Shown in pieces: positions 4,753 to 48,838 of a DNA stretch of 64,000 bases (position 1 is its first letter; every line of letters starts with the position of its first letter). Made by a program: the position numbers and the translations under genes. The stretch is from Candidatus Enterousia sp. (GTDB lineage: Bacteria > Pseudomonadota > Alphaproteobacteria > Rs-D84): assembly GCA_045587125.1 (NCBI GenBank), contig JAZNBN010000006.1:1118-65117 (forward strand). Direction: 5' to 3'. The notes under the pieces are model-generated. The model had not been told where the DNA came from. It did no database searches and saw only the letters and a program-made list of their open reading frames with translations.

Positions 4753-4827
4753 TTTGTTATTTCTCTTGCATTTTGTTACGATTATAATACACTCGCATGG
4801 AATATCAACAACATAAGGAGAAAAAAG

Positions 4828-5145
4828 ATGGCTATACAACACGCAACAGACGCAACAATTGCAGACATGATTGGTAATGGTATTACATTGGTTGATTTTT
4901 GGGCATCTTGGTGCGGTCCATGCCGCATGTTCGGTCCAATTTTCGAAGCCACATCTGAAAAAACAACCGACGCAAACTTTGTAAAATTTGAAATAGACGA
5001 ATCGAATCGTCAAACGCCTGTTAAATATGGAATCCGCAGCATTCCGAGTGTTTTGGCATTTAAAAATGGCGAATTGGTAGAAGCACGCACAGGTGTTATG
5101 GACGAAGAAACATTACTTGCATGGATAGAAGAATTAAAGGGTTAA
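4828..5145 (+). CDS. trxA: thioredoxin
   Basis: 105 aa with the WCGPC active site. An AGGAG-like RBS (aaggagaaaaaag) lies upstream. Confidence 0.95.
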   Translation: MAIQHATDATIADMIGNGITLVDFWASWCGPCRMFGPIFEATSEKTTDANFVKFEIDESNRQTPVKYGIRSIPSVLAFKNGELVEARTGVMDEETLLAWIEELKG

Positions 5146-14937: not shown

Positions 14938-16944
14938 TTATTTTCTTTTCTTACCAGATAAACACATAACAATTATTGTAAGCAACAAAATAATCATCAT
15001 TGTTTTGTTCAAACCAATTGTTTTGTAAATTGTATCATGGGCACCCCATACATATCCGTCTAAAACCCCTGTTTCACCGACGGGCAAACTGGATATAACC
15101 ACGCCATCAGATGCGACAAATGCACTTATCCCAGAATAATTAGCCCGTACCACCGGCAACCCAGATTCAATTGCATATCTACGTACCATATCTAAATGCT
15201 GATATGTTCCAGGCGTATTACCGAACCAGTTATCATTTGTAATATTGATAATCGCATCTATTGGATATCGTCCATATGGTATCAAAGAATCTGAAAAAAT
15301 AATTTCATAACATATCGCAGGAACAAACACAAAGTTATTAACACTTATAATTTCAGGTCCATCGCCCTGTGCCATATCTACGGGTGCGGGCAAAAAACCC
15401 AAAGGTTTATATTCACCAAACGGTACCAAATGTGATTTATTATAAATTTTCGTTATATCACCATATTTATCAGTTATAACCATTGAATTATACACACCAC
15501 CCGGACCAAAGGTATTTGTTCCCATAATAACAGGCTTTGACAATTGTTTTGCAAAATCAATAACATCATCTGGCAATACAACAAATGGGTATGTTGTTTC
15601 TGGCAAAACAACAATATCAACATCACCTTCAACACTGGCTAAATCAAACAACTGTCTTAAATTATATTCTGCTGTTTTCAATGCATCTGCCCTGTTATGA
15701 GTCGCCTTTTGCTTTTGTGATTTTCCAGGCTGAATAATTCTTAACATTACTTTTTCATTATCTGCGCCAAAATCTGATATATTCATATTTTTATATCCGA
15801 ACACGCAACCAACAACAATCAAAATACTAAACAATATAAAACTAGATTTTGTTTTATTTAATAACAATTCAATAAAACTTGCGCAAAAACCAACAATTAC
15901 AAAACTAAGCCCCAACGCACCCCACAACGACATAGAATTTGCAATCATCGGAACATTTATCATAATATTTGCGATTGGATTCCATGGAAACCCAGTGAAC
16001 ATCCATTCACGTGCCCATAAAACCAACACCCATACACATGCGAATAATATAGGTCGCACATTTTTATTACACTTATACTTTTTTATAGCAATAAACGGCC
16101 ATGAAAAAATAGCCACACCCGCCACCAACAACCCTATTACACCGGGCAGTGTCCATATTGCATATTGTGAAGTTAATTCTGGAATTACATAAATAGAATG
16201 CAAAGTCCACCAAAACATCGTCAAACAATACACTGCACCAAACGGAGAAACACGTAACAACGTACGCCAAAAACCAGAATCATCTGCATTACGAATCGTC
16301 AACCAATACGCACCTGCAACCCCAATTAATGTACACCACCATTGATAAAAAGGTGCAAACCCAAAAGACGCAATTCCACCAAACACTGCGTATAGAACAT
16401 ATTGTAAAAAACTATTTTCTTTTATTTTATTTTTTTTTATCCATGAAATTATTTTACCACCCGGACAACAAGAACCGTCCACACACGACAAAACATTATC
16501 AGATGCATATGGGTTTTTTATACCCATTTTTGCCAATATTTTTGTTTCTTTGTTTTCCATAATTATCGCGTCTTTATCTTTGATATGATCATACCCCATC
16601 AGATGTAAAACACCATGCACAACCATATGTGCACAATGATCCTCAAAAGATATATTTTCCAAAATTGCTTCTTTTTTCACTGTATCAAAAGAAATATAAA
16701 TATCCCCCAACAACACATCATCACCTAATTCAAAAGACAACACATTTGTTGGTTTATCAATATTTCTATAATCCCGATTGATTTGTTGTATTTCCTTGTC
16801 ATCTGTCAAAATTATTGACACTTCGGCCTGTTGATACTTTTTACCACCGACTGCATCTACAATTTTTTGGAAATCTATTTTATATTTTTTCCACTTATGA
16901 TTATTATAGTTCAAATATACTTGCATCTTTTCCACCATATACAC
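14938..16944 (-). CDS. ybeY/lnt: fused endoribonuclease YbeY / apolipoprotein N-acyltransferase Lnt
   Basis: Single 668-aa ORF. Residues ~7-150 carry the YbeY zinc motif HGVLHLMGYDH. From ~185 onward it has Lnt-type TM helices (FGGIASFGFAPF) and a C-terminal CN-hydrolase domain (VVLPE, ICYE). There is no stop between the two parts. The start is GTG at 16944 or a nearby ATG. Confidence 0.8.
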   Translation of the reverse strand: MYMVEKMQVYLNYNNHKWKKYKIDFQKIVDAVGGKKYQQAEVSIILTDDKEIQQINRDYRNIDKPTNVLSFELGDDVLLGDIYISFDTVKKEAILENISFEDHCAHMVVHGVLHLMGYDHIKDKDAIIMENKETKILAKMGIKNPYASDNVLSCVDGSCCPGGKIISWIKKNKIKENSFLQYVLYAVFGGIASFGFAPFYQWWCTLIGVAGAYWLTIRNADDSGFWRTLLRVSPFGAVYCLTMFWWTLHSIYVIPELTSQYAIWTLPGVIGLLVAGVAIFSWPFIAIKKYKCNKNVRPILFACVWVLVLWAREWMFTGFPWNPIANIMINVPMIANSMSLWGALGLSFVIVGFCASFIELLLNKTKSSFILFSILIVVGCVFGYKNMNISDFGADNEKVMLRIIQPGKSQKQKATHNRADALKTAEYNLRQLFDLASVEGDVDIVVLPETTYPFVVLPDDVIDFAKQLSKPVIMGTNTFGPGGVYNSMVITDKYGDITKIYNKSHLVPFGEYKPLGFLPAPVDMAQGDGPEIISVNNFVFVPAICYEIIFSDSLIPYGRYPIDAIINITNDNWFGNTPGTYQHLDMVRRYAIESGLPVVRANYSGISAFVASDGVVISSLPVGETGVLDGYVWGAHDTIYKTIGLNKTMMIILLLTIIVMCLSGKKRK

Positions 16945-19008
16945 TTATGACACGTTATTATTTTCTTTCATAGATTGCTGTATACGCATAAAATCTGCTG
17001 TTTTTGATTGTTGCAACACACGTCCAGCCGCATCATTATACGCTATTTTTTTACCTTTTTGTTTTCCTTGTTTTTTTTCTATAACACGGGTAACATCTGC
17101 CTGAACACGTCGATTACCATTTGCCACAGCCAATTTATAATTTGCTAATGCCCTGTCATAGTCACCTTGCATTTCATATGCAAATCCCGCATTATATTGT
17201 GCGGCACCATATTGAGATTTATCACCAATACGTTGAACCACTTCGCGTGCCTGGGCAATCGCATCATCATATCGCCCAAGTTTATTGTATGTCGCCGCCA
17301 GGTCATTACGCAACAAAGCATTATCAGGATATTCTGCGATTAAATTTTCAAACTGGGTTGCAGCCATTTCAAATTCCTGTTTTTGATACGCATCCAAAGC
17401 CATCGCATATTGTTCTTCATACCCAATAACATACGTTTCACGTTCAATACTTTTCTGACGTTCAGTTTTTGTATAACTCTTGATACTTTTTTTCAGATTC
17501 ACATTTTTTTCACATTGTGCGACCATTTCTGCCGGCATCACATCGCGAACTTTTGGTTTACCCTTTAACGACACTCCACCTGTTTTATCCACAGGATCTT
17601 TTATCCATTTTTTGAACTTTGCCACAGTTTCTCTATTAACTTTTCTTTGTTCTTTTGTTGTTCCCTCATCGGTAACAACAAACCAATTTTTTCTTTCTCG
17701 TCCAACCAAATCAAAAAATTCAGACATATAATTTACAGGCACATCCAACAATTCCTGGACTGAAATATCACCATTCATAACACATGCTTCTAACCAACGA
17801 CGCCATCTGATACCATCACCATCTTTCTTAACATTTATATACCAACCTATTCCATTTGCCATTTCTGGAATACCGCCGTCATCTAACCAATATTGTCCGA
17901 CATGTCCCTTTGATTCAACTGGATACTTTTCGAACACTGCTTTTACTTGTTCTTCTGTTAATGCATCACCATACTTTTCATGCAACTTTCTGATTTCAGC
18001 CCATCGATTTCCCATTGCGACACTTTCTTTTTCTACGACCAATGTTCCACCATTATAAATCATTGATGCAATAGACATCGCCTGTTGTACGGTATTAAGT
18101 TGAGCCTTGGTCGCAACATCATATCCAAACATAAACAAGAAAGTTTCTTTGTCTTCCAAATGCCATCTGGTCCATTCAAATGCTTCTTCTGATGTAATTG
18201 GTGGCGAATAACTATTCAACGCCCTACCGTCTTTTCCGACGGTATTCCCATATCCTTGGGTGGCTTTTCCCCTTGGTTTTGCACCTGGTTTTAAAGGTTT
18301 CATAGTGGCATCATCATAAACAACATGCATACCATTTTCTGTAACGGCACCTTCCATCGCAACCAGTTCTGCCACAATCATAGGCACCACCTGTTGCATA
18401 CGTGCTTTATATTCACCATATGTTCCAGGTTCCACATCAATTTTTTCATCTTCATCATTAATAGAATTAAAAATGTCTCGCACCCAAACCTGAAATCTTT
18501 GCCATGCTTTATATTCTTTTTTATTTTTTTCGTCTTCTTTGTTATCTTCTTTGTTAAAACCATTAACAGCTAATTGGGTACCAGCAGTGGTCATAGTCCC
18601 AACCATCATGTAATACAATAAATAATTTTTTATCCATGGATGTTTCTTTCCAAACTTAGTCAATGCATTATTTTTTGTTACATTTTCCATACTTCTAATC
18701 ACAACGTTATCAACAAAAATCGCATTTAATCCACGTGATAAATATTCTAACAACCACAACCCACCAACACCCGATATTTTACCTGTTTGCTGTGCGACTT
18801 CTTTTGCCCAACGTTTTAACTTGTCCTGATTGATTTGCAAAACAGATTCGCCACTATCATTTTTTACACGTACAAAAACATCGGATAAATGTGCTGTATC
18901 CGGCACATTCCAACCTGCGACTTTTTTTCTTGCCCCCTTTACTTTGTCTGCGATTTTTCTGACCCCATCGCCAAATTTTTGTGAGTTAGTTTTTGTATTA
19001 CGTTTCAT
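16945..19008 (-). CDS. large protein with a GH24 (phage-type) lysozyme-like domain and C-terminal TPR repeats
   Basis: 687 aa. MEGAVTENGMHVVYDD...TQGYGNT...PPITSEEAFEWTRWHL...QQAMSIASMIYNGG follows the GH24 motif order E...Y.D..G..T.GYG...it.eeA...ALvSf.fN.G. The C-terminus has at least 3 TPR-like repeats. Its stop abuts the start of ybeY-lnt. Confidence 0.6.
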   Translation of the reverse strand: MKRNTKTNSQKFGDGVRKIADKVKGARKKVAGWNVPDTAHLSDVFVRVKNDSGESVLQINQDKLKRWAKEVAQQTGKISGVGGLWLLEYLSRGLNAIFVDNVVIRSMENVTKNNALTKFGKKHPWIKNYLLYYMMVGTMTTAGTQLAVNGFNKEDNKEDEKNKKEYKAWQRFQVWVRDIFNSINDEDEKIDVEPGTYGEYKARMQQVVPMIVAELVAMEGAVTENGMHVVYDDATMKPLKPGAKPRGKATQGYGNTVGKDGRALNSYSPPITSEEAFEWTRWHLEDKETFLFMFGYDVATKAQLNTVQQAMSIASMIYNGGTLVVEKESVAMGNRWAEIRKLHEKYGDALTEEQVKAVFEKYPVESKGHVGQYWLDDGGIPEMANGIGWYINVKKDGDGIRWRRWLEACVMNGDISVQELLDVPVNYMSEFFDLVGRERKNWFVVTDEGTTKEQRKVNRETVAKFKKWIKDPVDKTGGVSLKGKPKVRDVMPAEMVAQCEKNVNLKKSIKSYTKTERQKSIERETYVIGYEEQYAMALDAYQKQEFEMAATQFENLIAEYPDNALLRNDLAATYNKLGRYDDAIAQAREVVQRIGDKSQYGAAQYNAGFAYEMQGDYDRALANYKLAVANGNRRVQADVTRVIEKKQGKQKGKKIAYNDAAGRVLQQSKTADFMRIQQSMKENNNVS

Positions 19009-19010
19009 TT

Positions 19011-19370
19011 TTATTTCCTTTTACCAAGACCGGTTTTTTTTGCAATTTTGGAACGTTTACGTGAATAATTTGGTGCGACAAAGGGGTAATTATCTGGCAA
19101 TCCCCATTTTTCACGATATTGTTGCGGGGTCATATTAAACTTTCGTTTTATATACCTGCGCAACATAACATGCCATGTATTATCTTCCAGACATTGAATT
19201 TTATCATTCTGCACAGAATCTGCAATTTGTTGTGGTGTAACAGATGTTCCACGCAAAATCTCACGTGCATTATGCACAGCCTGGGCCATAGTTAAATTCG
19301 GGTTTGCAGACATTGCTGCAGCCGCCAAATTCGCAACTGCCAATGTAAAATCAGAATTTTTATTTACCAA
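19011..19370 (-). CDS. Ros/MucR-family transcriptional regulator (zinc ligands not conserved)
   Basis: The C-terminus MTPQQYREKWGLPDNYPFVAPNYSRKRSKIAKKTGLG is the Ros/MucR signature. I prefer the TTG start at 19368-19370 (AAGGA 9 nt upstream); an alternative ATG is at 19313. The 243-aa ORF-track version overlaps rarA and is rejected. Confidence 0.7.
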   Translation of the reverse strand: MVNKNSDFTLAVANLAAAAMSANPNLTMAQAVHNAREILRGTSVTPQQIADSVQNDKIQCLEDNTWHVMLRRYIKRKFNMTPQQYREKWGLPDNYPFVAPNYSRKRSKIAKKTGLGKRK

Positions 19371-19440
19371 CTTGCGAAATCCTTTGTAATTTAATAGAAT
19401 AATTATATCACAAATAAACAGATAATAAAAGCCAAGTAAA

Positions 19441-20709
19441 ATGACACGACCACTTGCAGATTTAATGCGTCCAAATACAATTGATGATATTGTCGGACAA
19501 ACGACATTATTGGGTGAAAACGGACTGGTCCGTCGTATGGTAGATAATAAAAAATTATCTAATTTAATTTTATGGGGACCGCCGGGGTGTGGAAAAACAA
19601 CCATTGCACGTGCATTGGCAAATTCTGTTGATATGGATTTTGTCCCTATGTCCGCTGTATTTTCTGGCACAGCCGACATTAAAAAGGCAATGGATGCTGC
19701 GCGCATGAATCGTGATATTGGTCGCAGCACGTTGTTATTCATAGATGAAATTCATCGCTTTAATAAAACACAACAAGATACATTATTGCCTTATTTAGAA
19801 GATGGCACAGTTGTATTTATGGGTGCGACCACTGAAAACCCCAGTTTTAATTTAAATAACGCATTGTTATCCAGATGTCATGTTGGTGTATTATCCGCCC
19901 TGTCCACCGAAGACCTGTTAATTTTAATAAAACGTGCCGAAAAATTCTTGGATAAAGAATTACCATTAACAGATGATGCACGCACACATTTGGCCCAGAT
20001 GGCAGACGGCGATGCACGATTTTTATTAAACACAGTTGAATATTTAATCAACGCGAATTTCAAAAAAGAATTATCACCAGACGAACTGGATAACGCTGTA
20101 CAAAAACGTGCCCCGATGTCTGACAAACATGGTGATGAACATTATAATTTAATATCTGCATTGCATAAATCCCTGCGGGCCAGTGATACAGATGCTGCAC
20201 TTTATTGGGCGGCACGCATGATGACGTCTGGCCAAGACCCAATGTATATTTTCCGCAGATTGACACGTTTTGCAGTTGAAGATGTTGGACTGGCAGATCC
20301 CAACGCATTACAAATCGCAATTTCCGCATGGCAGGCATACGAACGTCTTGGCAGTCCTGAGGGTGATTTAGCCCTGACACAATTGGTGATATATCTTGGC
20401 ACTGCACCGAAAAGCATTGGAAATTATCGTGCACAAAAATCGGCATACGCATCTGCCAAATCCACAGGCAGTTTAATGCCGCCAAAAAATATCTTAAACG
20501 CACCGACAAAATTAATGCGTGACCTGGGATATAACGAAGGTTACATTTATGACCCAGATACAGAATCCGGATTTTCTGGACAAAACTGTTTTCCGGACGG
20601 AATGCCACGCCAGAAATTTTATATACCTGTGGAACGTGGATTTGAACGTGAAATAAAAAAACGTCTTGATTACTGGGACGGATTACGTAAAAAGTTAAAC
20701 AAGAAATAA
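19441..20709 (+). CDS. rarA: replication-associated recombination protein A (AAA+ ATPase)
   Basis: 422 aa with Walker A GPPGCGKTT, Walker B LFIDEIHRFNK and a MgsA C-terminal domain (HYNLISALHKSLRASDTDAALYW). Confidence 0.92.
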   Translation: MTRPLADLMRPNTIDDIVGQTTLLGENGLVRRMVDNKKLSNLILWGPPGCGKTTIARALANSVDMDFVPMSAVFSGTADIKKAMDAARMNRDIGRSTLLFIDEIHRFNKTQQDTLLPYLEDGTVVFMGATTENPSFNLNNALLSRCHVGVLSALSTEDLLILIKRAEKFLDKELPLTDDARTHLAQMADGDARFLLNTVEYLINANFKKELSPDELDNAVQKRAPMSDKHGDEHYNLISALHKSLRASDTDAALYWAARMMTSGQDPMYIFRRLTRFAVEDVGLADPNALQIAISAWQAYERLGSPEGDLALTQLVIYLGTAPKSIGNYRAQKSAYASAKSTGSLMPPKNILNAPTKLMRDLGYNEGYIYDPDTESGFSGQNCFPDGMPRQKFYIPVERGFEREIKKRLDYWDGLRKKLNKK

Positions 20710-20733
20710 AAACGCCCCATTGGGGCATTTTTT
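20709..20733. terminator. hairpin between convergent rarA and an OMP gene
   Basis: aaaacgccccattggggcattttt: a gcccc/ggggc stem flanked by an A-run and a T-run. Confidence 0.7.
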
Positions 20734-20737
20734 ATTT

Positions 20738-21475
20738 TTAGAACAAAATATTCACCTGGGCACCGAACTGAATTTCATCACTTTCAAATTCATAATCAAT
20801 ATGTCCGACATATTGTGTGCGCCCATATTCACGAACTAATTTTGTATGCAACCATTCCTGGTCATAATCAGTTCCCTTGTATGGATCTTTACTGGTTGCC
20901 TTGCGAATTGTGAAACCTGCACCAAATCTCCAATCTGGGGCAATTCTGAAATAAGATTCCGGCGTAAAGTCAATAAAACTTACACCACGCAAATCATCAA
21001 ATACCCAATTTGATTTGATTGTTGCGGCCAACGTCAAACCTGCCCATTGACGTCCAAAACGCAACCCTGCGTAATATGTTGAATCCGCATAGTACGGTGT
21101 ACGAACGTGTGAACTGCCCCCGACTTTGAATCCCAACAATAAATCAGAGATCAAATTTGATTCTGTATCACCTGGTCGTCCCATACGGTACACTGCACCG
21201 AAATCTATGGCAGAAAAACCATCTTCATCACCATTAAAGTGATGTTGATAATGAACATTTGCACCAATACTTAGACGGCTGTTCATACCATAAGAAAAAC
21301 TTTGCCCTGCCCGTAAAGTATGATCCCAATACGCAACAGACGTTTTAGTTAAGACTTCTTCTGCCGCCTGCAAAAACAACGGATCAGACGTATCACGTGA
21401 TAAATCATTTGCAGACGATGCAAAAGGCATAGTAAACACCCCTGCAATTAAACAAACAGATAAAAATTTATACAT
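20738..21475 (-). CDS. outer-membrane beta-barrel protein (245 aa)
   Basis: Has a signal peptide (MPFASSA), alternating amphipathic beta-strand pattern, aromatic girdle residues and a C-terminal Phe (VNILF). Confidence 0.65.
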   Translation of the reverse strand: MYKFLSVCLIAGVFTMPFASSANDLSRDTSDPLFLQAAEEVLTKTSVAYWDHTLRAGQSFSYGMNSRLSIGANVHYQHHFNGDEDGFSAIDFGAVYRMGRPGDTESNLISDLLLGFKVGGSSHVRTPYYADSTYYAGLRFGRQWAGLTLAATIKSNWVFDDLRGVSFIDFTPESYFRIAPDWRFGAGFTIRKATSKDPYKGTDYDQEWLHTKLVREYGRTQYVGHIDYEFESDEIQFGAQVNILF

Positions 21476-21507
21476 ATTTTGACCCTCTCTCCACGATATT
21501 TATATGA

Positions 21508-22683
21508 TTAAAATTCAAACATTATCTGAACACCGGCACGTGTTTCATTGTATTTTTCAACATCTGCCTGACCAACCAAAGGTTGTGCAGCAGTTGCACT
21601 GTTTATCATATACAAATCTAATTGTTTATCACTTGCGCTGTCATAGAAAACAGTTTTCAGATATAAATTCAATGCGAACCAATCATTTGGTTGCCAACCA
21701 AATGCACCCTTGATTGATGCCTGGTTATGCCATTCATAGTTACCGAACACAGATTCCAAATGCAATGTCCAATCCTTGTTCAGCACAGAAAATACACCCA
21801 ATCCACCTTCTATATAGAACAAATTACTGGTCCCTGATTGATATGGAATATATATAGCCGCAGGATTTCCACCGGCATCTTTACCTTCCATACCAACGCC
21901 ATACGAATCGCCATCCAAAGACAAATACCAACCACGTCCAACACCATAAATTGTTGATGTTCCGACCTTGTAACCTGCCTTTAATTCCAAGATTACATTA
22001 TCAGAAAAATCTTTGTAATGCTGATAATATGCACTGGCCATTGCAATCCATTCTTCTGTATCAACGAATCTGCCCTGCAATCCCAAACCATAAACGCTTA
22101 ATTCACTACTGTCTGCTTTATCATCTGGGGAACCATCACTCCATTCAAATTTTACATCACTGGCATCAAACTGCGCCATTGCCATCAATGCCAATCTGTC
22201 TGTGATACCGAAACTTAAATCTTCTTTGACTGTAAATTGCGAAGTATTCCATTTACCTGTAATACCGGACAAACTGCCTGCATAAACTGGATCTGGGATA
22301 ATTGGGAATTCAAACGAAGCATCTGCATAAGACAAATCCGTGAACATACCAAATTTACCTTCTAACGGTTGATAGAAAGGATTTGCCAAGAAATATTTAC
22401 GCACCTGTCTGCCAACAACCGTAGCATTTTTTCTGGTTTGTGACTTACCAGTTTGATACATAGTTGTACGATTACCATTAATTGCATATCCACGATTTGC
22501 ACTGCTGGTTGTATATTTCTTAGAAGAAGTTTTTTGTGTTGTCTTTGAATAATTTACAGTTTTACGTGCAGATGGTAAATTTGCACTGGACGATGAACGT
22601 GTATAAACACGTGTTGCAGCATCTGCCCCAGACACACCCAAAATTGCGACCAAAGTGATAATAAATGAAAAATATTTACTCAT
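21508..22683 (-). CDS. outer-membrane beta-barrel protein with a basic Ser/Thr/Asn-rich N-terminal tract (391 aa)
   Basis: Signal peptide (GADA), about 90 aa of low-complexity basic segment, then a beta-barrel-like region ending in the OMP-type terminus VQIMFEF. Confidence 0.65.
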   Translation of the reverse strand: MSKYFSFIITLVAILGVSGADAATRVYTRSSSSANLPSARKTVNYSKTTQKTSSKKYTTSSANRGYAINGNRTTMYQTGKSQTRKNATVVGRQVRKYFLANPFYQPLEGKFGMFTDLSYADASFEFPIIPDPVYAGSLSGITGKWNTSQFTVKEDLSFGITDRLALMAMAQFDASDVKFEWSDGSPDDKADSSELSVYGLGLQGRFVDTEEWIAMASAYYQHYKDFSDNVILELKAGYKVGTSTIYGVGRGWYLSLDGDSYGVGMEGKDAGGNPAAIYIPYQSGTSNLFYIEGGLGVFSVLNKDWTLHLESVFGNYEWHNQASIKGAFGWQPNDWFALNLYLKTVFYDSASDKQLDLYMINSATAAQPLVGQADVEKYNETRAGVQIMFEF

Positions 22684-22767
22684 AATAAAGTTCTCCTTTG
22701 GGTAAAATTATACCATAAAAAAGCCCTATAAAAAAGAATAAAAACATGTAACAAGAAAAAAATTCCA

Positions 22768-22795
22768 ATAAAAAATCCCGCCATCTGGCGGGAAA
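22768..22795 (-). terminator. intrinsic terminator after the 730-aa gene
   Basis: The minus-sense sequence is cccgcc-agat-ggcggg followed by TTTTTT. Confidence 0.75.
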
Positions 22796-22797
22796 GT

Positions 22798-24990
22798 TTA
22801 TTCTTCGGTTTTTACTACTTTTTTCCAATTACGCAAACTGTCTTCTGGTGCCGTTACAGTTTTATCGTCCATATTCAAGGCTTCTCTTAAACAGCCTTCA
22901 CGCAACTTGGCAGAATTGAAAGTTTTTGTAGATTCTGAATAATCTTCCCAACTTTCTGTTTCTGTTGCGGCCCCATTCAAGATTTCATTTAATGTTACAA
23001 CGTTACGGCAAGTATTTTTCGTATAATCATTTGACCATACACATTTTTCACTATCCTGCAAATTGATAACACCAACGAATTGTGCACCTGATGGCTGACA
23101 AATCATTTCTTCATAGCAATGTGGAACATTTGCGATTTGCGCACAATATGTTTTGATACGAGATGTTGTCCAATTTGGTTCACTGTCTGCTGTTTCTTCA
23201 TAACATTCCCAAATTTCACTTAAACATTCGTTAAAGTTTGCATATGCAGTTTGAACAGAATTCAACACAGATTCTTTTTCTTCTGTTGCAAATTCCAAAC
23301 GTTTCTGTTGCAAAGCCTGTTGTGCAGCAACTTTTTGATAACCAATATTTTGTGCCATTACACGCAATTGTTCACCATAAACATCACAGTCTGCATTTGC
23401 GTCCAGCAAATATTTATTCATAATACTGCGACGTGCATCAGCCACCGGACCACGCAGATTTGAATACGGGTCACCATTGGCAGAATTATAACCAAAGCAA
23501 ACTGCACTATTATTTGTTGAAGTCGCTTTACGTTCAAACAATTCTATGTCACCATCACTGCCGACTGCTATTTTTGAATTATAGTTAAATGGACAATTGG
23601 TTGAAGATTGACCATCTGCACATTTTCCAATTCCACCCGCAGCAGTTGGGTTTCCGCATGCTTCATAAATACCGTTAAAGCAAGAATCCAATACACGGCT
23701 GCAAACATTGTTATGTGCAAATTCAAACAAATCATATCCCCATGTATTTGCCAATTTATCCGCAGAAGTTTCTGTTGATGTAAACGCGCCACCGATACCA
23801 CTTAAATTTCCAACAATAGTAGAAACATTATCCAACGCACCTGTCAGGCTGGTTGTATCATCTTTTAACAAAGTCTTTGTACTATCTTTTGCATCCGCCC
23901 ATGCCTGCAAAGAAGCCAATATATCAGAACTGCTGCCCTCTATATTATCGATATTAAACCCGAAATTATTACCACCTGCTGTATTATCTTGGCAATAAGA
24001 AGGCATTGTACAAGATGTTACTGCGGCACCATTATTATAAAAATTATGATTTGAACACCATGCTATGGCTTCTTCTGAACTTTGCCCATATTTACTTGTA
24101 ACCTCTTTCCAAGAAACACAGTTCATAACTTTTTCTGCATCTGTTAATTGAAAAGCCTGTGAAATATCTTTACCTTTGTTTGCAATCAACAATGCCAATT
24201 CACCAGATGCCTTAATCAATTCTTCATTTGCTGTTTCCAATTGTGATTCAGCATCTGCAAATGCTTTTACACGACCGGCACACGCACATCTGCGTTGTGC
24301 GGCATTACGTGCGGTACAAATTTCGTCCATACATGTATAATAAGATTCCATACAGTTACTGAACGCATCTGCAGAAATCAAACCTGTACTGGAATCAATA
24401 ATATTTGAATAATTACCTGTATACAATTTACTGTTCAAATAAGAATATGCGGTTGTCTGGGTGCCCTTGCTGCCACGGATTGCACTGCCCTGCAAAGAAA
24501 CACGTGCATTATCCACCATATCAGACGATGCGGTACGCGCACGAACATTACGTGTTAGGTTTGCATTTGCACGATTGATTGCACTTTTTGTGCGATTAAC
24601 AACATTACGTGATTTTGTCATATCTGCACGTTGATTTGCGATTTTATTTGTAGTACGTGCATTTGTACGTGTTGCGACCGCACGTGATTGAACCGCACGA
24701 TTTTGATTTACGTTTGCACGTGGATTATTTGTTGGTGCAACCGCAGTCCGTGCAACAGTTGCACGATTTGCAACCGAATTTGTTCCGCGTGGACTGGTAC
24801 GGCCAGACGTACGAACATTTGTACGCGTGCCCTGGGGCACAACAATTTCATTTGCATTCATTGGTGCGATTGGATCTGCAAAAACCGCCCTGATTGAAAC
24901 CAAAGTCGAACAAACAAAAAACGCCCCCGCCAACAAGAACACAGTTCCCATTGCATTTTTAACAGAACTTATGATTTTTTGACTTGTCAT
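22798..24990 (-). CDS. secreted Cys-rich protein (730 aa), member of a local family
   Basis: Signal peptide (VFADP), about 130 aa of Arg/Asn/Thr-rich tract, then about 40 Cys in paired motifs (FSNCMESYYTCMDEIC, NFNECLSEIWECYEE) plus coiled-coil segments. No known family recognised. Confidence 0.6.
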   Translation of the reverse strand: MTSQKIISSVKNAMGTVFLLAGAFFVCSTLVSIRAVFADPIAPMNANEIVVPQGTRTNVRTSGRTSPRGTNSVANRATVARTAVAPTNNPRANVNQNRAVQSRAVATRTNARTTNKIANQRADMTKSRNVVNRTKSAINRANANLTRNVRARTASSDMVDNARVSLQGSAIRGSKGTQTTAYSYLNSKLYTGNYSNIIDSSTGLISADAFSNCMESYYTCMDEICTARNAAQRRCACAGRVKAFADAESQLETANEELIKASGELALLIANKGKDISQAFQLTDAEKVMNCVSWKEVTSKYGQSSEEAIAWCSNHNFYNNGAAVTSCTMPSYCQDNTAGGNNFGFNIDNIEGSSSDILASLQAWADAKDSTKTLLKDDTTSLTGALDNVSTIVGNLSGIGGAFTSTETSADKLANTWGYDLFEFAHNNVCSRVLDSCFNGIYEACGNPTAAGGIGKCADGQSSTNCPFNYNSKIAVGSDGDIELFERKATSTNNSAVCFGYNSANGDPYSNLRGPVADARRSIMNKYLLDANADCDVYGEQLRVMAQNIGYQKVAAQQALQQKRLEFATEEKESVLNSVQTAYANFNECLSEIWECYEETADSEPNWTTSRIKTYCAQIANVPHCYEEMICQPSGAQFVGVINLQDSEKCVWSNDYTKNTCRNVVTLNEILNGAATETESWEDYSESTKTFNSAKLREGCLREALNMDDKTVTAPEDSLRNWKKVVKTEE

Positions 24991-25104
24991 AAATCTTTCC
25001 CCCTATTCCCCGTTTTCTGCGGGTTTCCTTTACTTTTTAAAATCATTCCACGGTGTGCAATGCACACTTATTTATATAATTATATCAATTTTTTTGATAT
25101 CTGT

Positions 25105-25140
25105 AAACAACAAATAAACACCCGCATGACCTGCGGGTGA
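25105..25140 (-). terminator. hairpin after the 257-aa gene
   Basis: cacccgca-tgacc-tgcgggtg: an 8-bp stem directly after the stop, with a T-rich tail (TTTATTTGTTG) in the minus sense. Confidence 0.6.
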
Positions 25141-25145
25141 TTTTT

Positions 25146-25919
25146 TTATCTGCTATTCCAACCTTTGGTATTATAACTTCGCTCTTGATCATTATAAGCA
25201 CGATACTGTGCCTGCAAACAATCTCTATAATATTCCATACAACTTTTAAACGCTTTACTTGATTTAATAGTAGATTTGGCAAAACAATTTTTATAGTCAT
25301 CTTCTGTTTTTTCAACACAACCTGACTTTCGTTCTGCGCCAAATTTCATCTCCTTCAAGGCTTTAAAATCGCCTGCCAACTGAGCCTTTAAATCTGATGT
25401 TACATCATTACCATAATTTGATGTACGTTCAACAATATCTAAATTTGTTTGATAACATTTTAAGATTTCTTCATCTTTATAAAGTCGTGAACAATTTTGT
25501 GTTCCTGCAATATTAACCCTGCTGTCATTTGAACTAAAATGACCCGATGAAGACGAAGATTTTTCAGAATCTGCACCTGCCATTTCAAACTTACTCATTG
25601 TAACGGCTTTTTCCAATTGGGTTTTAAAACGACGCAACATAGATTCCATTTGTTCATATTGCTTGTACATCTGTTGGGTAATCAGTGTCGTTTTCATACC
25701 AATAACTTCTTTCATTAACGCACGTTCATCAGCCCCCGGATTACCCGTCCGACCAATATTATATGCGTGCGTTGAACACAGGGCAAAATCAGGTGAAATT
25801 GCATCATTTGCATCATCTGCACATGAATCATTGGCACGCACGGCACACGGTCCAAACACAACCAACGCGATTAAAATCGCCCGCACAGATAATAAAAATT
25901 TCAACATACTTTTTTTCAT
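25146..25919 (-). CDS. secreted Cys-rich protein (257 aa), same local family
   Basis: Has a signal peptide (CAVRAND), a central coiled-coil (QQMYKQYEQMESMLRRFKTQLEK) and a C-terminal FKSCMEYYRDC motif that matches FSNCMESYYTC in the 730-aa protein. Confidence 0.6.
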   Translation of the reverse strand: MKKSMLKFLLSVRAILIALVVFGPCAVRANDSCADDANDAISPDFALCSTHAYNIGRTGNPGADERALMKEVIGMKTTLITQQMYKQYEQMESMLRRFKTQLEKAVTMSKFEMAGADSEKSSSSSGHFSSNDSRVNIAGTQNCSRLYKDEEILKCYQTNLDIVERTSNYGNDVTSDLKAQLAGDFKALKEMKFGAERKSGCVEKTEDDYKNCFAKSTIKSSKAFKSCMEYYRDCLQAQYRAYNDQERSYNTKGWNSR

Positions 25920-25930
25920 TTATTTTACTG

Positions 25931-26095
25931 TTATTTTAAACCTTTACTTACAACCTTGGCACCTTTGCATTCCTGTGTCACTGGATTGTAATTTTGACCG
26001 ACCGCACCACACTTGCGACACGCCCCATTGTTTTTACTCAGGTCAGCCACACCGCCAGTCTCAGCACAACTTGCTTGGCAAACCGCTCCCTCTCG
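25931..26095 (-). other. out-of-frame Cys-rich coding-like segment 3' of the 694-aa ORF (possible frameshifted gene end)
   Basis: My own translation of the adjacent frame gives REGAVCQASCAETGGVADLSKNNGACRKCGAVGQNYNPVTQECKGAKVVSKGLK*. This repeats the in-frame upstream pattern C.NGYGEYDPKTGTCSGEDGTEGRLLSKNN and ends 12 nt before the next gene. Confidence 0.5.
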
Positions 26096-28109
26096 TCAGG
26101 TCTAACCTGTTGTTTTTACTTAATAATCTACCTTCAGTTCCGTCTTCGCCCGAACACGTTCCCGTTTTAGGGTCATATTCCCCGTAACCATTTTTACATG
26201 CACACCACCCACCGTTACCTTGATACCATGTACCACCATATTCTTGACATTGTTTTTGTTCCTTTAAAATACAATCTCCATAATTATCGCGCACATAACC
26301 ATTTTTACAAATACAACCCTTACCATCCCATTCGGTACCCTCCTCTGAAACACACTGGGCCTTATCCGCTTTTGCAATAACATTACCAGAAATACAACAA
26401 TCTGCAGACACCACACATCTACCATTTTCCCCATTTTCACCACCTACCCAAGACACATCGCAACCATCATCAAACGTATACCCAGAGATCGATTGCGTAC
26501 ACCACTGTTTTTCTGTAACAGTCAAATTTGTATGACAACTATTTGTACTGCCCGCAGACAAATAACCATTTCTTACCACAATTTTTTCCAAATCATCATA
26601 CTTCACACACACATCTTTTGGCATTTGTCTACGACTAATGGCATTTTTCAACAAATCGTATCCATGTGGTGTCAACGAACAATACTTTACTTTTTCTAAA
26701 GTAGCATCACCTGCTCTGCTATACCTATTCTTTGTACCGGCATATTCTGGGGCATCTTGGGCCAACAAGCGTTCCAGTGTATCTAAATCCATTGTTGCGC
26801 CTTTGCGACTGGAACGGCGACCAAATATAGAAATTGAATCCAACGAAGATGTCGCACAACCAACACGCACAAATCCATCTGCGTCATGTTCATTACTTGA
26901 CACCCATTCACGCTGTAATGCGTCACTGCCTTCGTCTATTAAACTGATTAATGTACAACGCGGATCGTCTTGAGGCGGAACCGTCATTCCCGGTGTACAT
27001 TCGCCAACACCACGTGTCTGATCAGATTTCTGCGACTTTCCACCCACACAATTCAGCGGTTCATTATCACCACCTTCCTTGATTCTGTACTTATAATAAT
27101 CTGGACTACCATGATTAGCATACGCACACAAATATTTACCCCATTTATTACATGACCCGGACAACATCATAATAACATCAGAAACATCAACACCAACCGC
27201 CAATGCTGTTTCCAAGGCTTCGTACATTTCATCAACAATATTTTCGTATGGATCAATAAATCCCAATGCTTTGTCTTTGAACACCTTTACACGGTTTGGT
27301 CCTGAACAATTGTTCCCACGTGTATCACAACCTGCATATCTGAACGTGGTATCCATTGATTCTTTCAGATTTTTTAATGCAGCCTCGGCATTTTCAATTT
27401 TGGATAAAATTTCACCACCAACCTGTTCACGCAATAACACATCCGCAGAAACCCCAGATTCCACCGCAGCCTGTTGTGCCATGGTTAAACCCGTACTGGC
27501 CGATTCATTCATGCGTTGCTGGGCGGCGGCCGCTTCGGCCTGGGCATTTGCAACCATTTGTTTTTGTTCATTTAATGCAGCCTGCATTTGTTGCATTTGC
27601 TGGGCATTTTGCTGTTGCATTTGTTGTTGCATTTGCTGCATCTGCATTTGCATTTGTTGCATTTGCTGACTGTTACTGGCTGCGGCCGCGGCGGCAGCAG
27701 CCTGCTGTGCAGCCAACTGTTGCTGTTGCGATTTGGTATTTGCAGTCGCAACCAATTGTGCAGAAATATATTCAACCAAATCATTTCCGTATTGTTTACA
27801 TGTCGCATTACTGTTCACACACCCTGCAACAATCGGACGTGCCAAATCCAATGTTGTACAACCACCGCACTTTGGTTGTGCACAACGCAATATAACAGAA
27901 TTACAATTTCCAAAATCCGCAGTTGGCGCATTTGCAGCCGCAGTCAAAGTACGACTGTTTGTCATATTGTTCCAATTATTGTTGCTTGCAGACGCATTTC
28001 CACCATTCCACGCAGTCAAATTATTACCCGCAGTTGTTGCAACCTGGGCACCTGCGACACATGGCATGGCGCATAAAACCAATAAAAATAAGCGCTTAAT
28101 CAGTTTCAT
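26061..28109 (-). CDS. secreted Cys-rich protein with a poly-Gln/Met tract and EGF-like C-terminal repeats
   Basis: Start chosen at MKLIKRLFLLVLCAMPCVAGAQV (ATG 28107-28109, purine-rich RBS aagagag). Contains FGNCNSVILRCAQPKCGGC, an Ala/Gln/Met low-complexity coiled-coil, and repeats of type C.CKNGY....G.C at the C-terminus. Confidence 0.6.
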   Translation of the reverse strand: MKLIKRLFLLVLCAMPCVAGAQVATTAGNNLTAWNGGNASASNNNWNNMTNSRTLTAAANAPTADFGNCNSVILRCAQPKCGGCTTLDLARPIVAGCVNSNATCKQYGNDLVEYISAQLVATANTKSQQQQLAAQQAAAAAAAASNSQQMQQMQMQMQQMQQQMQQQNAQQMQQMQAALNEQKQMVANAQAEAAAAQQRMNESASTGLTMAQQAAVESGVSADVLLREQVGGEILSKIENAEAALKNLKESMDTTFRYAGCDTRGNNCSGPNRVKVFKDKALGFIDPYENIVDEMYEALETALAVGVDVSDVIMMLSGSCNKWGKYLCAYANHGSPDYYKYRIKEGGDNEPLNCVGGKSQKSDQTRGVGECTPGMTVPPQDDPRCTLISLIDEGSDALQREWVSSNEHDADGFVRVGCATSSLDSISIFGRRSSRKGATMDLDTLERLLAQDAPEYAGTKNRYSRAGDATLEKVKYCSLTPHGYDLLKNAISRRQMPKDVCVKYDDLEKIVVRNGYLSAGSTNSCHTNLTVTEKQWCTQSISGYTFDDGCDVSWVGGENGENGRCVVSADCCISGNVIAKADKAQCVSEEGTEWDGKGCICKNGYVRDNYGDCILKEQKQCQEYGGTWYQGNGGWCACKNGYGEYDPKTGTCSGEDGTEGRLLSKNNRLDLTRGSGLPSKLC

Positions 28110-28182
28110 ATTCTCTCTTAGGTTCAATTTTATCATAAACCCCACATTATTGAAAGTAAAAAAATGAATGATTTTACTCTAT

Positions 28183-28281
28183 CACTGTGATTAGCGAAAA
28201 AATTAAAGATAATGGTATAGATAAGCGGGTTGGCAATGGCGTAGTGTACAGAAGTTACATGAGTGCTTTACCCCACCCCGT
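28183..28281. repeat. nested-hairpin repeat, copy 1a (left arm, variable module and apical stem present; right outer arm missing; decayed)
   Basis: cactgtgattagcgaaaaaattaaagataatggtatagata + agcgggttggcaatggc + gtagtgtacagaagttacatga + a partly complementary right module. It abuts copy 1b directly. Confidence 0.8.
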
Positions 28282-28398
28282 AATTAGCGGAAAAATTAAA
28301 GATAATGGTATAGATACGCACAAACCCGACATCGTAGTGTACAAATGCTACATGAGATGTCGGGTTTGTGTGTAGATATGCCATTAGATTTAATTTTA
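28282..28398. repeat. nested-hairpin repeat, copy 1b (complete)
   Basis: Hairpin 28292-28397. The outer arms pair over 25 positions with two tandem G.A/A.G mismatches and one G.U. The inner stem is 17 bp (cgcacaaacccgacatc / gatgtcgggtttgtgtg). The apical stem is gta(g)tgta / tacatga. The right end overlaps the ftsK stop codon. Confidence 0.9.
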
Positions 28399-30660
28399 CA
28401 GTATTTGACGTTTGTTATTCACATCAGGCCCAGATATCACACCCTCTTGCTCCATACGTTCAATCAATCCTGCCGCCTTGTTATATCCGATTTGCAAACG
28501 ACGTTGCAGATAAGAAATACTGGTCTTTTTATCACGCAGAACAATTTCTTTGGCCTGTTCATACAAGTCTGCATCTTTACCTGCCTTGACTTCTGCCTTG
28601 GACGGCGTAACAGGTGCATTATCTTCTTCGCTTTCGGTTACACCAGATGCATATTCAGGTTCACCTTGGGCACGCAAGAATTTTCCAACACGATTTAATT
28701 CATCGTCTGCAATAAATGCACCATGAATTCGCACAGGGACACGGCCTGCTTCACTGAATAACATATCACCACAAGACAACAGATTTTCTGCGCCTTTTTC
28801 ACCCAATGTTGTCATAGAATCAATATGACTGCGTGCCTGGAACGATACACGTGTTGGGAAATTCGCCTTGATAACACCTGTAATTGTTGTTGCGTCTGGT
28901 CGTTGGGTCGCCATGACCAAGTGAATACCTGCTGCACGGGCCTTTTGTGCAATACGTTGTACACATGCCTCTACCTCTTTACGGGCCAAAGACATCAGGT
29001 CTGCCACCTCGTCAATAATAATGACGATATATGGAATATCAGACAAATCTACTTCTTGGGTTTCAAATAATAATTCACCTGTTTCAGGGTCTGTACCAAC
29101 CGCGACCTGTTTGGTTACTTTTTCACCACTGGCACGTTTTTCCGCAGCAATTTCATTATAACTTTCTACATTACGCGCATTCAGTAATTGCAATTGTTTG
29201 TAACGTTCTTCCATTTCACGTACAGCCCACTTTAATGCGTTCACAGCCGCCGCCGGATCTAACTTTACAATAGGCGTAATTAAATGCGGAATGTCATCCC
29301 AGAATCCAAAGTCAACACCCTTGGGGTCAATAATCATCAATTTACACTTATCAGGAGTAAAGTGATAAACAATTGACGTGATAATAGATTGCACAAACAC
29401 AGACTTACCAGACCCAGTACGTCCAGCAATCAACATATGTGGCATTTTTGCCAAATCGTAATACAATGGATTTCCACCAATATCTACACCCAATGCCAAT
29501 GGAATTTTATACTTTGAATTAATAAATGTTTCATTTGCAACCAATGTCTGATAACGCACAGTTTGACGCTTTAAATTAACCATTTCAACACCAATCAACT
29601 GGGTGCTGGGGATATGCGCAATACGAATATTTTCAGTCGCCATCGCACGTGTCATATCACGTACAGTGTTGCTAACATCTGCCATACGTGTACCACTATC
29701 TGGCATAAATTCATATAATGTAACAATTGGTCCCGGGCGAATCCCAACAACTTTGCCATTAACACCATATTCTGCAAAATGAACCTCCATCGCAGCGGCA
29801 TTACGTTTCAATTCAGGCGTTACTACATTTTTACCAAACACAGATTTTTCTAATAATTTTGGATCTGGCAAATTATACATAGCCGCTGCACGACGTGGAC
29901 GAACCGCCGCCACAGCCGTAGCAACCTTTCCCGTCTCTGCCTTAGGCGCACGTTTTTTTACCAATGTACGTTTTGGTTTTTCTTCTGGTTCTTCTTCGGT
30001 TTCATCTTCCTCTTCTTCGTCTTCTTCGTATTCTTCATCGTCTTCATATTCACCCTGGGCAGGTTTTATAAGGTGGAATGCACTGGCAATCCAACGCACC
30101 CAACGAATCAATACACCAAACGCCCAACGAAGATGTGCAAAACTGATATGCAACAACATTCCAGCCATAAACACAAATATACCAACACACAACACACCCA
30201 ACACAGGTGAAAATTTACCCAATGCCGCACCAATATCTGTGGAAACAATCGCACCAAACATGCCGCCATAATTTCCCGATGGAACCAACAATCCAAAACC
30301 AATTGCACCCACACAAACAGTTACAAAACCACGCAGAAAATTATATTCAGGCGAATAATCAATATTCATCCCCAGCATTTTTAATGCACCCCAACGAGTA
30401 AGTGCCAACAATACAAAAAACGCAGGCACCACACCAACGGCATATCGTAACGCACCAACGATATTTCCCATAACAGATTGTGTACCAAAGTTACTTGCAA
30501 CTGCGAACCCATTCATATACGGATCATACATACATACTGCAAACAATGCCCAAACGCCGCACAACATCAGTACCCCACCAAAGATGCGGCCCCACAAACT
30601 CTTTAATGCCCCAGAAACACCCGAAGGCAAAAATTTTGATTTTTTAGATTTCCTTGCCAT
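28396..30660 (-). CDS. ftsK: DNA translocase FtsK
   Basis: 754 aa with N-terminal TM helices, an acidic linker (EEYEEDEEEEDETEEE), a motor domain with Walker A GRTGSGKS, and a C-terminal gamma winged-helix (SISYLQRRLQIGYNKAA). Confidence 0.93.
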   Translation of the reverse strand: MARKSKKSKFLPSGVSGALKSLWGRIFGGVLMLCGVWALFAVCMYDPYMNGFAVASNFGTQSVMGNIVGALRYAVGVVPAFFVLLALTRWGALKMLGMNIDYSPEYNFLRGFVTVCVGAIGFGLLVPSGNYGGMFGAIVSTDIGAALGKFSPVLGVLCVGIFVFMAGMLLHISFAHLRWAFGVLIRWVRWIASAFHLIKPAQGEYEDDEEYEEDEEEEDETEEEPEEKPKRTLVKKRAPKAETGKVATAVAAVRPRRAAAMYNLPDPKLLEKSVFGKNVVTPELKRNAAAMEVHFAEYGVNGKVVGIRPGPIVTLYEFMPDSGTRMADVSNTVRDMTRAMATENIRIAHIPSTQLIGVEMVNLKRQTVRYQTLVANETFINSKYKIPLALGVDIGGNPLYYDLAKMPHMLIAGRTGSGKSVFVQSIITSIVYHFTPDKCKLMIIDPKGVDFGFWDDIPHLITPIVKLDPAAAVNALKWAVREMEERYKQLQLLNARNVESYNEIAAEKRASGEKVTKQVAVGTDPETGELLFETQEVDLSDIPYIVIIIDEVADLMSLARKEVEACVQRIAQKARAAGIHLVMATQRPDATTITGVIKANFPTRVSFQARSHIDSMTTLGEKGAENLLSCGDMLFSEAGRVPVRIHGAFIADDELNRVGKFLRAQGEPEYASGVTESEEDNAPVTPSKAEVKAGKDADLYEQAKEIVLRDKKTSISYLQRRLQIGYNKAAGLIERMEQEGVISGPDVNNKRQIL

Positions 30661-40804: not shown

Positions 40805-41950
40805 TTATTCCGTTGTGGTGTTTTCCAGTAACTTCCAACCCATAAACGTATATCCTGGCTTTACTGGGTCGGATGGAACGGTAATACTGCCTTCATACGT
40901 ACATTGATTGATTGTATGTGCACCATTATTATCTGGGTTCCAATCAATATTAATTGTGTTAGCCGCACATGTGGCAGGTGACACAGGCAGACTGTTCATT
41001 ACCGCAGTACGGAACGTGCGATAGTACACGCCATCGGCCTGCAGGTTGCTCACACAGACGTCCGCGCAATTGGACGCGCAATCATAATCCGTATCTTCGT
41101 TGCTGTTGAACACCCACGGGGCAGATGTAACTATTACTTTGTCGCCACCAGTTGGGGTAAAGCCATCAACCTGACAATAACAATATTGTGCACCTTCAGC
41201 ACCCGTTTCATCGGTCAGGGTGTCTACAATAGTGATTTCCCCGGCAGTACTTGTGTTCCAATCAAATTCTCTTACCCCTGGTTGCGTGCTGCAACGGCCA
41301 TGGCCCGTTATCATGCCTTTGTCGCCATAGGCGGACGCAAATGCCATCGGGTCGCCTGCAATACCCGCATCAGATGATGTCAGATTATAAGACACACCTT
41401 GATTTCCGTTGTTATCGTTAGATGTATATCCAGTGCCGACGTCTTCACCAATTGTTTCACCTATATCCAATCCTGGTTTTACGTGCCATCCGGCAACGCA
41501 TGCCGTTGGTTCGCACGTGTCAACCCCACTGCCATAGTAATCGTTACCCGTTACCGCCGTTGCATGTGCTATGTTTGCCGTTGCAACCGTACATGCTGTA
41601 TAACATTGTGTGTCTGCACCTGAACCTTCGGCACTGTTTGGGTATTCGGTTGGACATTGGGCGATACTGTTGTCCGCCGTTTCAACCGTGAATCCACCAC
41701 CAACGCAGTATGAACCCGCGGGGCATGTTGTTTTGTCCACAGATGTTTCTGTTACGCTTAAATATTGACCAGGGTCCAATGTATAATCTATCAAATCCCA
41801 TGTCGCGATTGTATTTGCCGTGGCGTTATTGTCCGATACGCCCAATACATCAACCGTACATGTGTTCTCACTGGTTATTATTTTATCGGCACCGAATGCA
41901 GGTGCAATAAACGTTCCCATTAATGCGGTGGTTAAAAAATATTTTTTCAT
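40805..41950 (-). CDS. Cys-rich surface/secreted protein, paralog A (C-terminal Listeria-Bacteroides-type repeat)
   Basis: Start at MKKYFLTTALMGTFIAPAFGA (ATG 41948-41950, RBS ggaaaggg). Contains a CPAGSYCVGGG motif and the C-terminal PVKPGYTFMGWK (GYTF.GW repeat). It is a paralog of 47684-48811. Confidence 0.7.
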   Translation of the reverse strand: MKKYFLTTALMGTFIAPAFGADKIITSENTCTVDVLGVSDNNATANTIATWDLIDYTLDPGQYLSVTETSVDKTTCPAGSYCVGGGFTVETADNSIAQCPTEYPNSAEGSGADTQCYTACTVATANIAHATAVTGNDYYGSGVDTCEPTACVAGWHVKPGLDIGETIGEDVGTGYTSNDNNGNQGVSYNLTSSDAGIAGDPMAFASAYGDKGMITGHGRCSTQPGVREFDWNTSTAGEITIVDTLTDETGAEGAQYCYCQVDGFTPTGGDKVIVTSAPWVFNSNEDTDYDCASNCADVCVSNLQADGVYYRTFRTAVMNSLPVSPATCAANTINIDWNPDNNGAHTINQCTYEGSITVPSDPVKPGYTFMGWKLLENTTTE

Positions 41951-41978
41951 TTCCCTTTCCTTTTCGTTATAAAAAAAC

Positions 41979-42015
41979 AATCACCTTAATGGCATGGTAT
42001 GCTATTAAGGTGATT
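41979..42015 (-). promoter_or_regulatory. leader hairpin plus U-run (terminator/attenuator-like) upstream of paralog A
   Basis: aatcaccttaat..attaaggtgatt: a stem of about 12-17 bp. In the mRNA sense it is followed by TTTTTTT and lies about 30 nt before the ATG. The same element is conserved at 48839-48875. Confidence 0.5.
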
Positions 42016-48811: not shown

Positions 48812-48838
48812 TTCCCTTTCCTTTTCGTTATAAAAAAT

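Follow-up and report, generated by a model that had tools for sequence, protein, structure and literature searches.

Outer-membrane barrels and variable secreted surface proteins are both known functional classes, and they are the ones that come closest to the genes described here. It is against them that we set five adjoining minus-strand genes of Candidatus Enterousia sp., lettered A to E in the order of their transcription. They lie in a 64,000-nt stretch of DNA (GCA_045587125.1, contig JAZNBN010000006.1, positions 1,118–65,117 of the forward strand), called the window from here on; numbers beginning with L (e.g. L083) designate related metagenomic loci. Among described barrels, FapF carries an N-terminal periplasmic extension, a coiled coil, ahead of the barrel itself. 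Barrels and Cys-rich proteins occur together in the chlamydial outer membrane complex, which comprises the MOMP porin and the Cys-rich proteins OmcA and OmcB in a host-dependent bacterium of reduced genome. On the side of the secreted proteins, the nearest likenesses are to the EGF-like and ephrin-receptor-like modules of eukaryotes and protists and to variable surface adhesins and antigens.

Each of these resembles a part of the locus and departs from it in other respects. FapF and the COG4313 channel, barrels of 12 strands, are the best fold matches to D, which likewise has an N-terminal extension before its barrel. However, identity is below 12%, the extension of D is basic and disordered rather than a coiled coil, no fap genes lie nearby and DSSP assigns ~15 strand elements to D. 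The chlamydial complex may be likened to the locus in that a bacterium of reduced genome pairs barrels with secreted envelope proteins rich in Cys, but Pfam, NCBIfam and PDB searches give none of A to E any sequence or profile similarity to OmcA or OmcB, A and C appear helical and not beta-rich, Enterousia has peptidoglycan machinery and the hypervariability among strains suggests an outward role. The string C-x-C-x2-G-[YF]-x4-8-C, which we take to match the PROSITE EGF_2 pattern, is found at the C-termini of A, of C2 (a family of C paralogues) and of some C orthologues, and one remote member of the C/C2 superfamily reaches Pfam Ephrin_rec_like; yet the A protein of the window has no Pfam EGF-type match even at E≤1, and the number and sequence of the modules vary freely. 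Finally, A is reminiscent of variable surface adhesins and antigens, with an N-terminal scaffold 98–99% identical and a tip 17–28% identical among conspecifics, although Pfam and NCBIfam reveal no known anchor domain, repeat family or secretion signal (autotransporter, LPXTG, RTX or T9SS C-terminal domain).

Candidatus Enterousia belongs to Rs-D84, an order of uncultured gut Alphaproteobacteria widespread in humans, livestock and insects, whose genomes (mostly <1 Mb, ~900 genes) lack the tricarboxylic acid cycle, respiration and standard transporters, and which is suspected to lead a partner-dependent life (PMC12306168). A sequence-only reading of the window had proposed that the five genes form one envelope or surface module, in which Cys-rich proteins are served by dedicated barrels. 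We find that the block is made of three independent transcription and evolutionary units, A-B, C and D-E, which happen to lie side by side in one Enterousia subclade. Much of the descriptive part of that reading was borne out. The five co-oriented open reading frames (ORFs) were recovered with the sizes and positions first given for them, and a Pfam scan confirmed the flanking genes as rarA/MgsA (19441..20709, plus strand) and ftsK (28396..30660). A signal peptide can be read in all five proteins, where a hydrophobic stretch lies between an N-terminal K/R segment and an AxA-like cleavage site, and these features are conserved in orthologues. The co-orientation is itself uninformative, because the minus strand carries 36 of the window's 49 genes. 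The GC content of the window is ~38% and its GC skew is strongly negative in nearly every 2-kb bin which, together with some three quarters of the genes lying on the minus strand, is consistent with a single replichore with a strong leading-strand gene bias.

Transcription is the first level at which the block appears to divide. Terminator-like hairpins with T runs follow B (25119..25139, minus strand) and C (22776..22793, minus strand), and a bidirectional one, again a hairpin with T residues, is placed between E and the convergent rarA (20708..20732, assigned to neither strand). No terminator was seen within A-B or within D-E, so that the hairpins split the block into A-B, C and D-E, in line with the three or more transcription units that had been anticipated from the hairpins after B and C. 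A putative sigma-70-like promoter lies before C (25079..25107, minus strand; TTTACA, a 17-nt spacer and a TG-extended TATAAT, 11/12), identified as a consensus match only.

Comparative synteny divides the block along the same lines. Of 80 species genomes compared around C, only 5–6 show the order S41-PAP2-ftsK-A-B-C-D-E-rarA in full, and in ~70 none of A, B, D or E lies within 10 kb of C. Elsewhere the units are dispersed or interrupted by housekeeping genes: L083 reads ftsK-A-B-(161-aa ORF)-rmlABCD-D-E-fabD-rarA, L084 has D-E alone in the interval (ftsK-D-E-rarA), mnmE, ruvA and yebC separate C from D in L004, and secB, mltA and ruvC separate B from C in L088. D-E is thus best described as a fixed pair in a housekeeping neighbourhood, keeping its place between ftsK and rarA, and A-B and C as mobile. 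E comes directly after D in every locus holding either gene, B comes directly after A wherever the contig is long enough (80 metagenomic loci retrieved with the A profile), and it is for these two pairs only that a conserved co-linear neighbourhood holds. C can be found beside A-B in at least three arrangements (A-B-C, C-A-B and C-AB fused) and beside D-E in two orders (the window and L060); from these gene orders, the adjacency of C and A-B seems to fall short of a conserved cluster. More generally, the ftsK-rarA interval of this genus is a hot spot of rearrangement, with contents that differ from genome to genome (L083, L004, L088, L060, L084). Two observations had been named beforehand as speaking together against the proposed module, synteny with the barrels not being conserved and the Cys-rich proteins being traced with confidence to well-known families; the first is largely what we see, and no homology of the second kind was found. 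We have rejected dedicated barrels as the primary reading on synteny.

All the families are restricted to one clade. Every homologue found comes from gut metagenome-assembled genomes of Candidatus Enterousia / Rs-D84: more than 1315 for A and 812 for D, all from the Enterousia clade, and more than 1195 for C, at 55–99% identity, among which the best 120 are 59–100% identical to the query and nearly all cover 96–100% of it. We count 278 GTDB species genomes with C, whose profile drew only 186 matches from 1.84 billion representative proteins. Scans of A to E against Pfam and NCBIfam gave no relative, the sole match being of low-complexity TFIIA to the Q-rich stretch of A, and sequence-profile searches of the PDB with the alignments of C, D and E gave no match. 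No relatives of C or A were found in the IMG/VR viral contigs, and a phage origin was rejected on that ground. Literature searches on Enterousia and Rs-D84 turned up genome descriptions and nothing on these proteins. The earlier suggestion of lineage-specific envelope or secreted proteins of no described family therefore stands, and, as judged from these searches, A to E appear to be undescribed protein families in an uncultured and widespread gut lineage.

The A-B unit seems to be in essence one protein. Gene A (26061..28109, minus strand) encodes 682 aa from an ATG; its ORF reaches a GTG at 28145, which would give 694 aa, and in the alignment the homologues start at the internal ATG 12 codons past that GTG. 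The signal peptide of A is followed by an N-rich tract, a CX6CX4CX2C motif, a Q/M/A-rich helix, a conserved Cys-containing core and a hypervariable tail. It is the 3' half of the gene (residues ~331–682 in the 682-aa numbering, 26061..27119, minus strand) that proved hypervariable in the comparison of conspecific strains, and the tail includes two putative EGF-like CxCxxGY modules (~26154..26315, minus strand), with the EGF_2-like signature at residue 611 and a near-match at 648. The same signature occurs in a minority of the A homologues. In gene B (25146..25919, minus strand; 257 aa) the signal peptide is followed by a core, KTTLITQQMYKQYEQMES..KTQLEKA, that is conserved and by a C-terminal half that is variable in the alignment. 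In ~18 divergent loci a single fused ORF takes the place of A and B, and in it a signal peptide and the A core are followed by the mature B domain without a signal peptide of its own. Because the two genes are always adjacent and are fused in many lineages, A and B can be considered functional partners, and these comparisons indicate that they are two halves of one secreted Cys-rich protein that is a single chain in other lineages.

Gene C (22798..24990, minus strand) is an ORF of 730 aa. Its N-terminal hydrophobic segment is highly conserved and precedes a polycationic, disordered tract, after which comes a core that is rich in Cys and largely helical. The tract (residues 40–165, 24496..24873, minus strand) is A/N/R/T/V-rich and of low complexity, without Cys and with a net charge of +18; it varies in sequence across the family and is disordered in the AlphaFold2 (AF2) model, with a predicted local distance difference test score (pLDDT) below 50. 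D has a counterpart in residues 23–95 (22399..22617, minus strand; 73 aa, net charge +15, also Cys-free and AF2-disordered), so that the basic tracts reported near the start of both proteins are real; they are rich in Arg/Lys, Thr and Ser, and in C also in Asn. The AF2 model of C, built on 22 sequences, is mostly helical with a pLDDT of 49.5, and a Foldseek search with this low-confidence model yielded nothing beyond generic coiled coils (E >2), which is uninformative. Two segments of the core deserve mention. One is a Cys-helix module (residues 208–292, 24115..24369, minus strand) that reads NCMESYYTCMDEIC..QRRCACAGR followed by a helix, in which the Cys residues are invariant and which is common to C2. 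The other is a strain-variable internal cassette (residues ~291–420, 23731..24120, minus strand), 49% identical in two conspecific strains in which the rest of C keeps 95–100%. Some C orthologues reach 840–1094 aa through C-terminal extensions (e.g. P0021, P0077 and P0082); in L004 (10001..12916, 971 aa) the extension consists of repeated CxxGY..C modules.

The C2 proteins (~700–950 aa) were found in at least 23 loci (e.g. L027 13038..15404 and L141 9308..11629), while the window itself has none. They consist, in this order, of a signal peptide, a basic S/T/R-rich tract, CQxQYNxCMDQFC..NQKRCSCS with a helix and a large Cys-containing core, and hhalign aligns them to residues 208–292 of C over 84 columns with a probability of 98.4% (E 6e-15), which shows C and C2 to be paralogous. 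Members of the superfamily have in common a module of ~85 aa, in which C-x6-C-M-D-x2-C ... R-C-x-C is joined to a helix and which follows a basic tract of low complexity, and the tail of the search of representative proteins aligns to positions 40–290 of the C profile only. C2 typically follows rplU-rpmA, downstream of C or of C-AB, with PPDK, a PagL-like outer-membrane protein and UvrD as other neighbours, and no secretion-system genes were seen in these neighbourhoods. The EGF_2-like signature is located at the C-terminal end of 19 of 20 C2 proteins and is present as well in the C orthologues with C-terminal extensions, and never in D. Apart from isolated matches to Flg_new and Ephrin_rec_like, Pfam scans of 20 C2 proteins and of eight remote members of the superfamily were blank.

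That A, B and C belong to a single Cys-rich family, as had been suggested from their paired-Cys motifs, did not hold up. Profile comparison by hhalign gave probabilities of 2% for C with A, 0.7% for B with C and 2% for B with A, and BLASTP found among the three only a 41-aa match of C with B (E 0.002). At the level of modules, the C-terminal motif of B aligned to the C module with a probability of 33%, and A with less than 1% to anything. For want of detectable homology by either method, the single family was rejected. The motif strings are indeed present and, in their strict form, limited to A, B and C among the window proteins; shuffle tests look significant, but the motif had been picked post hoc. 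The alignment of B shows no conservation of the motif's first Cys, and only the motif of C falls in a demonstrably conserved module, that common to C2. Because profile homology is absent and the first Cys of B is not conserved, the string common to the three proteins would be no more than a short element, either convergent or of great age.

Gene D (21508..22683, minus strand) encodes 391 aa, made up of a signal peptide, the basic extension and a barrel (residues 96–391). In an AF2 model from 61 sequences, residues 96–391 are all-beta with pLDDT 80–90, and residues 1–95 are disordered. Foldseek against the PDB gave 225 matches at E≤1e-3, of which the best 50 were all outer-membrane barrels. FapF and the COG4313 channel (PDB 5o65 and 4rl8) ranked first (E ~1e-7, probability 1.0, target-normalised TM ~0.6), with autotransporter barrels (EstA, NalP, EspP), OmpG, CymA and Pla/OmpT further down. 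The C-terminal Phe (F391) is invariant in the 61 sequences. The model thus portrays D as an outer-membrane beta-barrel of a new sequence family, without settling its strand number or pore type. Membership of the FapF family was rejected, there being no Pfam, NCBIfam or PDB sequence match and the neighbours being E, C, rarA and ftsK; so was an autotransporter or other type V system, as there is no Pfam match, the N-terminal part is only the 73-aa disordered basic tract and the likeness is at the level of fold. Gene E (20738..21475, minus strand; 245 aa) has a signal peptide and ends in ..VNILF, with a C-terminal Phe invariant in seven sequences. It gives a weak hhalign match to the strands of D (probability 48–65%), and a simple hydrophobic-moment caller, too crude for strand counts, finds amphipathic beta segments in it. 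The earlier assignment of both genes to outer-membrane proteins with a C-terminal Phe is thus supported for D by a modelled barrel, while E is, on its match to D, a probable small outer-membrane barrel.

The sharpest difference between the units emerged when three loci from conspecific strains were compared with the window. Against a protein background of 95–99% identity (SecD, S41 and FtsK; 91–92% for PAP2), residues 1–330 of A are 98–99% identical to the window and residues 521–682 only 17–28%, B ranges from 37 to 93% by segment, and C drops to 49% over residues 291–420 in two strains with 93–100% in its remainder. D and E, over their whole length, retain 94–96% and 95–98%. In 300-nt sliding windows the nucleotide identity has a background of ~0.84–1.00 and falls in two troughs, at 27200–25700 (down to 0.15) and 24200–23600 (0.63–0.73). 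Alleles have been replaced locally within A, B and C, whereas D and E are free of such replacement. Across the genus, C (~60%) and E (53–85%) show a conservation comparable to that of FtsK (65–75%). The intergenic region between ftsK and A (28101..28400), presumed to hold the promoter of A, also varies among conspecific strains, with an identity of 0.64 in L167 and 0.82 in L165 against a background of ~0.95.

The explanation that we favour, and to which we would give somewhat more than an even chance, is that D and E are general outer-membrane channels, whereas the products of A-B and C leave the cell interior as variable surface proteins that face outward. D-E, which evolves like housekeeping genes, would serve solute exchange in an organism with very few transporters, the polycationic N-terminal tail of D being either periplasmic or threaded through the pore. 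A-B, C and C2 would be exported via Sec and held at the envelope; their polycationic tracts may tether them to the anionic envelope, and their conserved Cys residues would stabilise the helical scaffolds. The variable parts would face outside, meeting a partner cell, the host or phages, and such exposure would drive the allelic replacement in A-B and C. The location at the surface, the disulfides, the function as channels and any ligand are inferences. Several points weigh against this picture. Proteins as large and folded as A, B and C would have to be carried through the outer membrane, and we identified no route for this. Periplasmic disulfide formation is uncertain, because the lineage reportedly has no respiratory chains (PMC12306168). 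The model of C is poor. Moreover, the recurrence of C beside A-B and beside D-E in more than one arrangement makes some functional coupling between the units conceivable, and hints at it for A-B and C.

The recurrence beside D-E is among the arguments that can still be made for a single module, in which D and/or E would be dedicated exporters or anchors, like FapF, the autotransporters or two-partner secretion, that move or hold A-B and C at the surface. We consider it unlikely. Its structural argument, that the best matches of D are polypeptide-transporting 12-stranded barrels (FapF, EstA, NalP, EspP), is countered by the diffusion channels COG4313, OmpG and CymA, which Foldseek matches equally well, all at less than 12% identity. 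All five families are equally narrow in phyletic range, no other export route was found for A, B and C, and C adjoins D-E in two orders, but D-E stays put while A-B and C come and go, terminators part the units, relatives have housekeeping genes between them, and D and E do not take part in the strain variability of A, B and C.

Somewhat more doubtful is a periplasmic disulfide-cross-linked network comparable to the chlamydial complex, in which A, B and C would lend the envelope stiffness from its inner side, with their basic tracts binding them to the barrels. The invariant Cys sets of A and C, a C protein as conserved as FtsK, the presence of basic disordered tracts on both C and the barrel D and the reduced genome would all fit such a scaffold. 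Against this, A, B and C undergo allelic replacement at the level of strains, which one typically sees in proteins that face outward and not in internal scaffolds, and the EGF-like end modules and the Listeria-Bacteroides or ephrin-receptor-like repeats in superfamily members also point outward. Genes for peptidoglycan synthesis (PBP, FtsW, MurG) are present, and there is no similarity to OmcA, OmcB or MOMP. Lastly, a polymorphic toxin-immunity pair, with A carrying a variable C-terminal toxin and B as its cognate immunity protein, was suggested by an A that is conserved N-terminally, hypervariable C-terminally and followed by a small and likewise variable gene, but is very improbable and was rejected on the A-B fusion and the signal peptide of B. 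In many lineages B is joined to A in frame, and its core is highly conserved; Pfam and NCBIfam show no toxin, trafficking or immunity domain, and the tail of A is made of Cys-rich EGF-like modules.

The remainder of the window, in which no tRNA or Rfam feature was found, holds some other genes worth recording. Two more Cys-rich secreted proteins (40805..41980 and 47684..48865, both minus strand; 391 aa with 16 Cys and 393 aa with 18 Cys) are paralogues 71% identical to each other and ~7 kb apart, each ending in a Listeria-Bacteroides repeat (PF09479, E ~2e-6). A third Cys-rich ORF (3664..5013, minus strand; 22 Cys, 4.9%) is a class-V aminotransferase or cysteine-desulfurase-like protein that adjoins SufE and an Fe-S assembly protein; its Pfam match begins at residue 92, and the Cys-rich first 90 residues are probably due to an over-extended TTG start. 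At 14938..16944 (minus strand) one ORF of 668 aa joins the YbeY endoribonuclease to apolipoprotein N-acyltransferase (LNT_N plus CN_hydrolase), a fusion also called, at 664–667 aa, in L083, L084 and L166. The next gene (16945..19008, minus strand) encodes a 687-aa protein with C-terminal TPR repeats, whose relatives give a weak Phage_lysozyme match, and adjoins a Ros/MucR regulator (19011..19400, minus strand); it is kept beside rarA across the genus and is therefore not a prophage. A 243-aa ORF overlapping the start of rarA (19011..19742) looks like an over-extended version of the ~120-aa MucR gene.

The five genes amount to ~2,300 codons of orphan envelope proteins that have been kept across hundreds of species, three of them with strain-specific hypervariable cassettes. 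In compact, strand-biased genomes such as these, adjacency and co-orientation weigh little, and it was comparative synteny that split the apparent system into three. A to E are defined targets for metaproteomics, for antibodies or fluorescence in situ hybridisation and for heterologous expression, and A, B and C are the most concrete candidates so far for molecules facing the partner of Enterousia, its host or its phages. It is conceivable, though we think it improbable, that A-B, C and C2 make up an as yet undescribed contact apparatus peculiar to Rs-D84, in which polycation-tethered, Cys-stabilised helical proteins with swappable EGF-like tips, possibly exported via the FapF-like D/E, would be used by a bacterium lacking standard transporters to attach to and exploit a partner cell or the host. 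If true, such an apparatus would represent a new outer-membrane display or secretion route and would be key to the lifestyle of the lineage.

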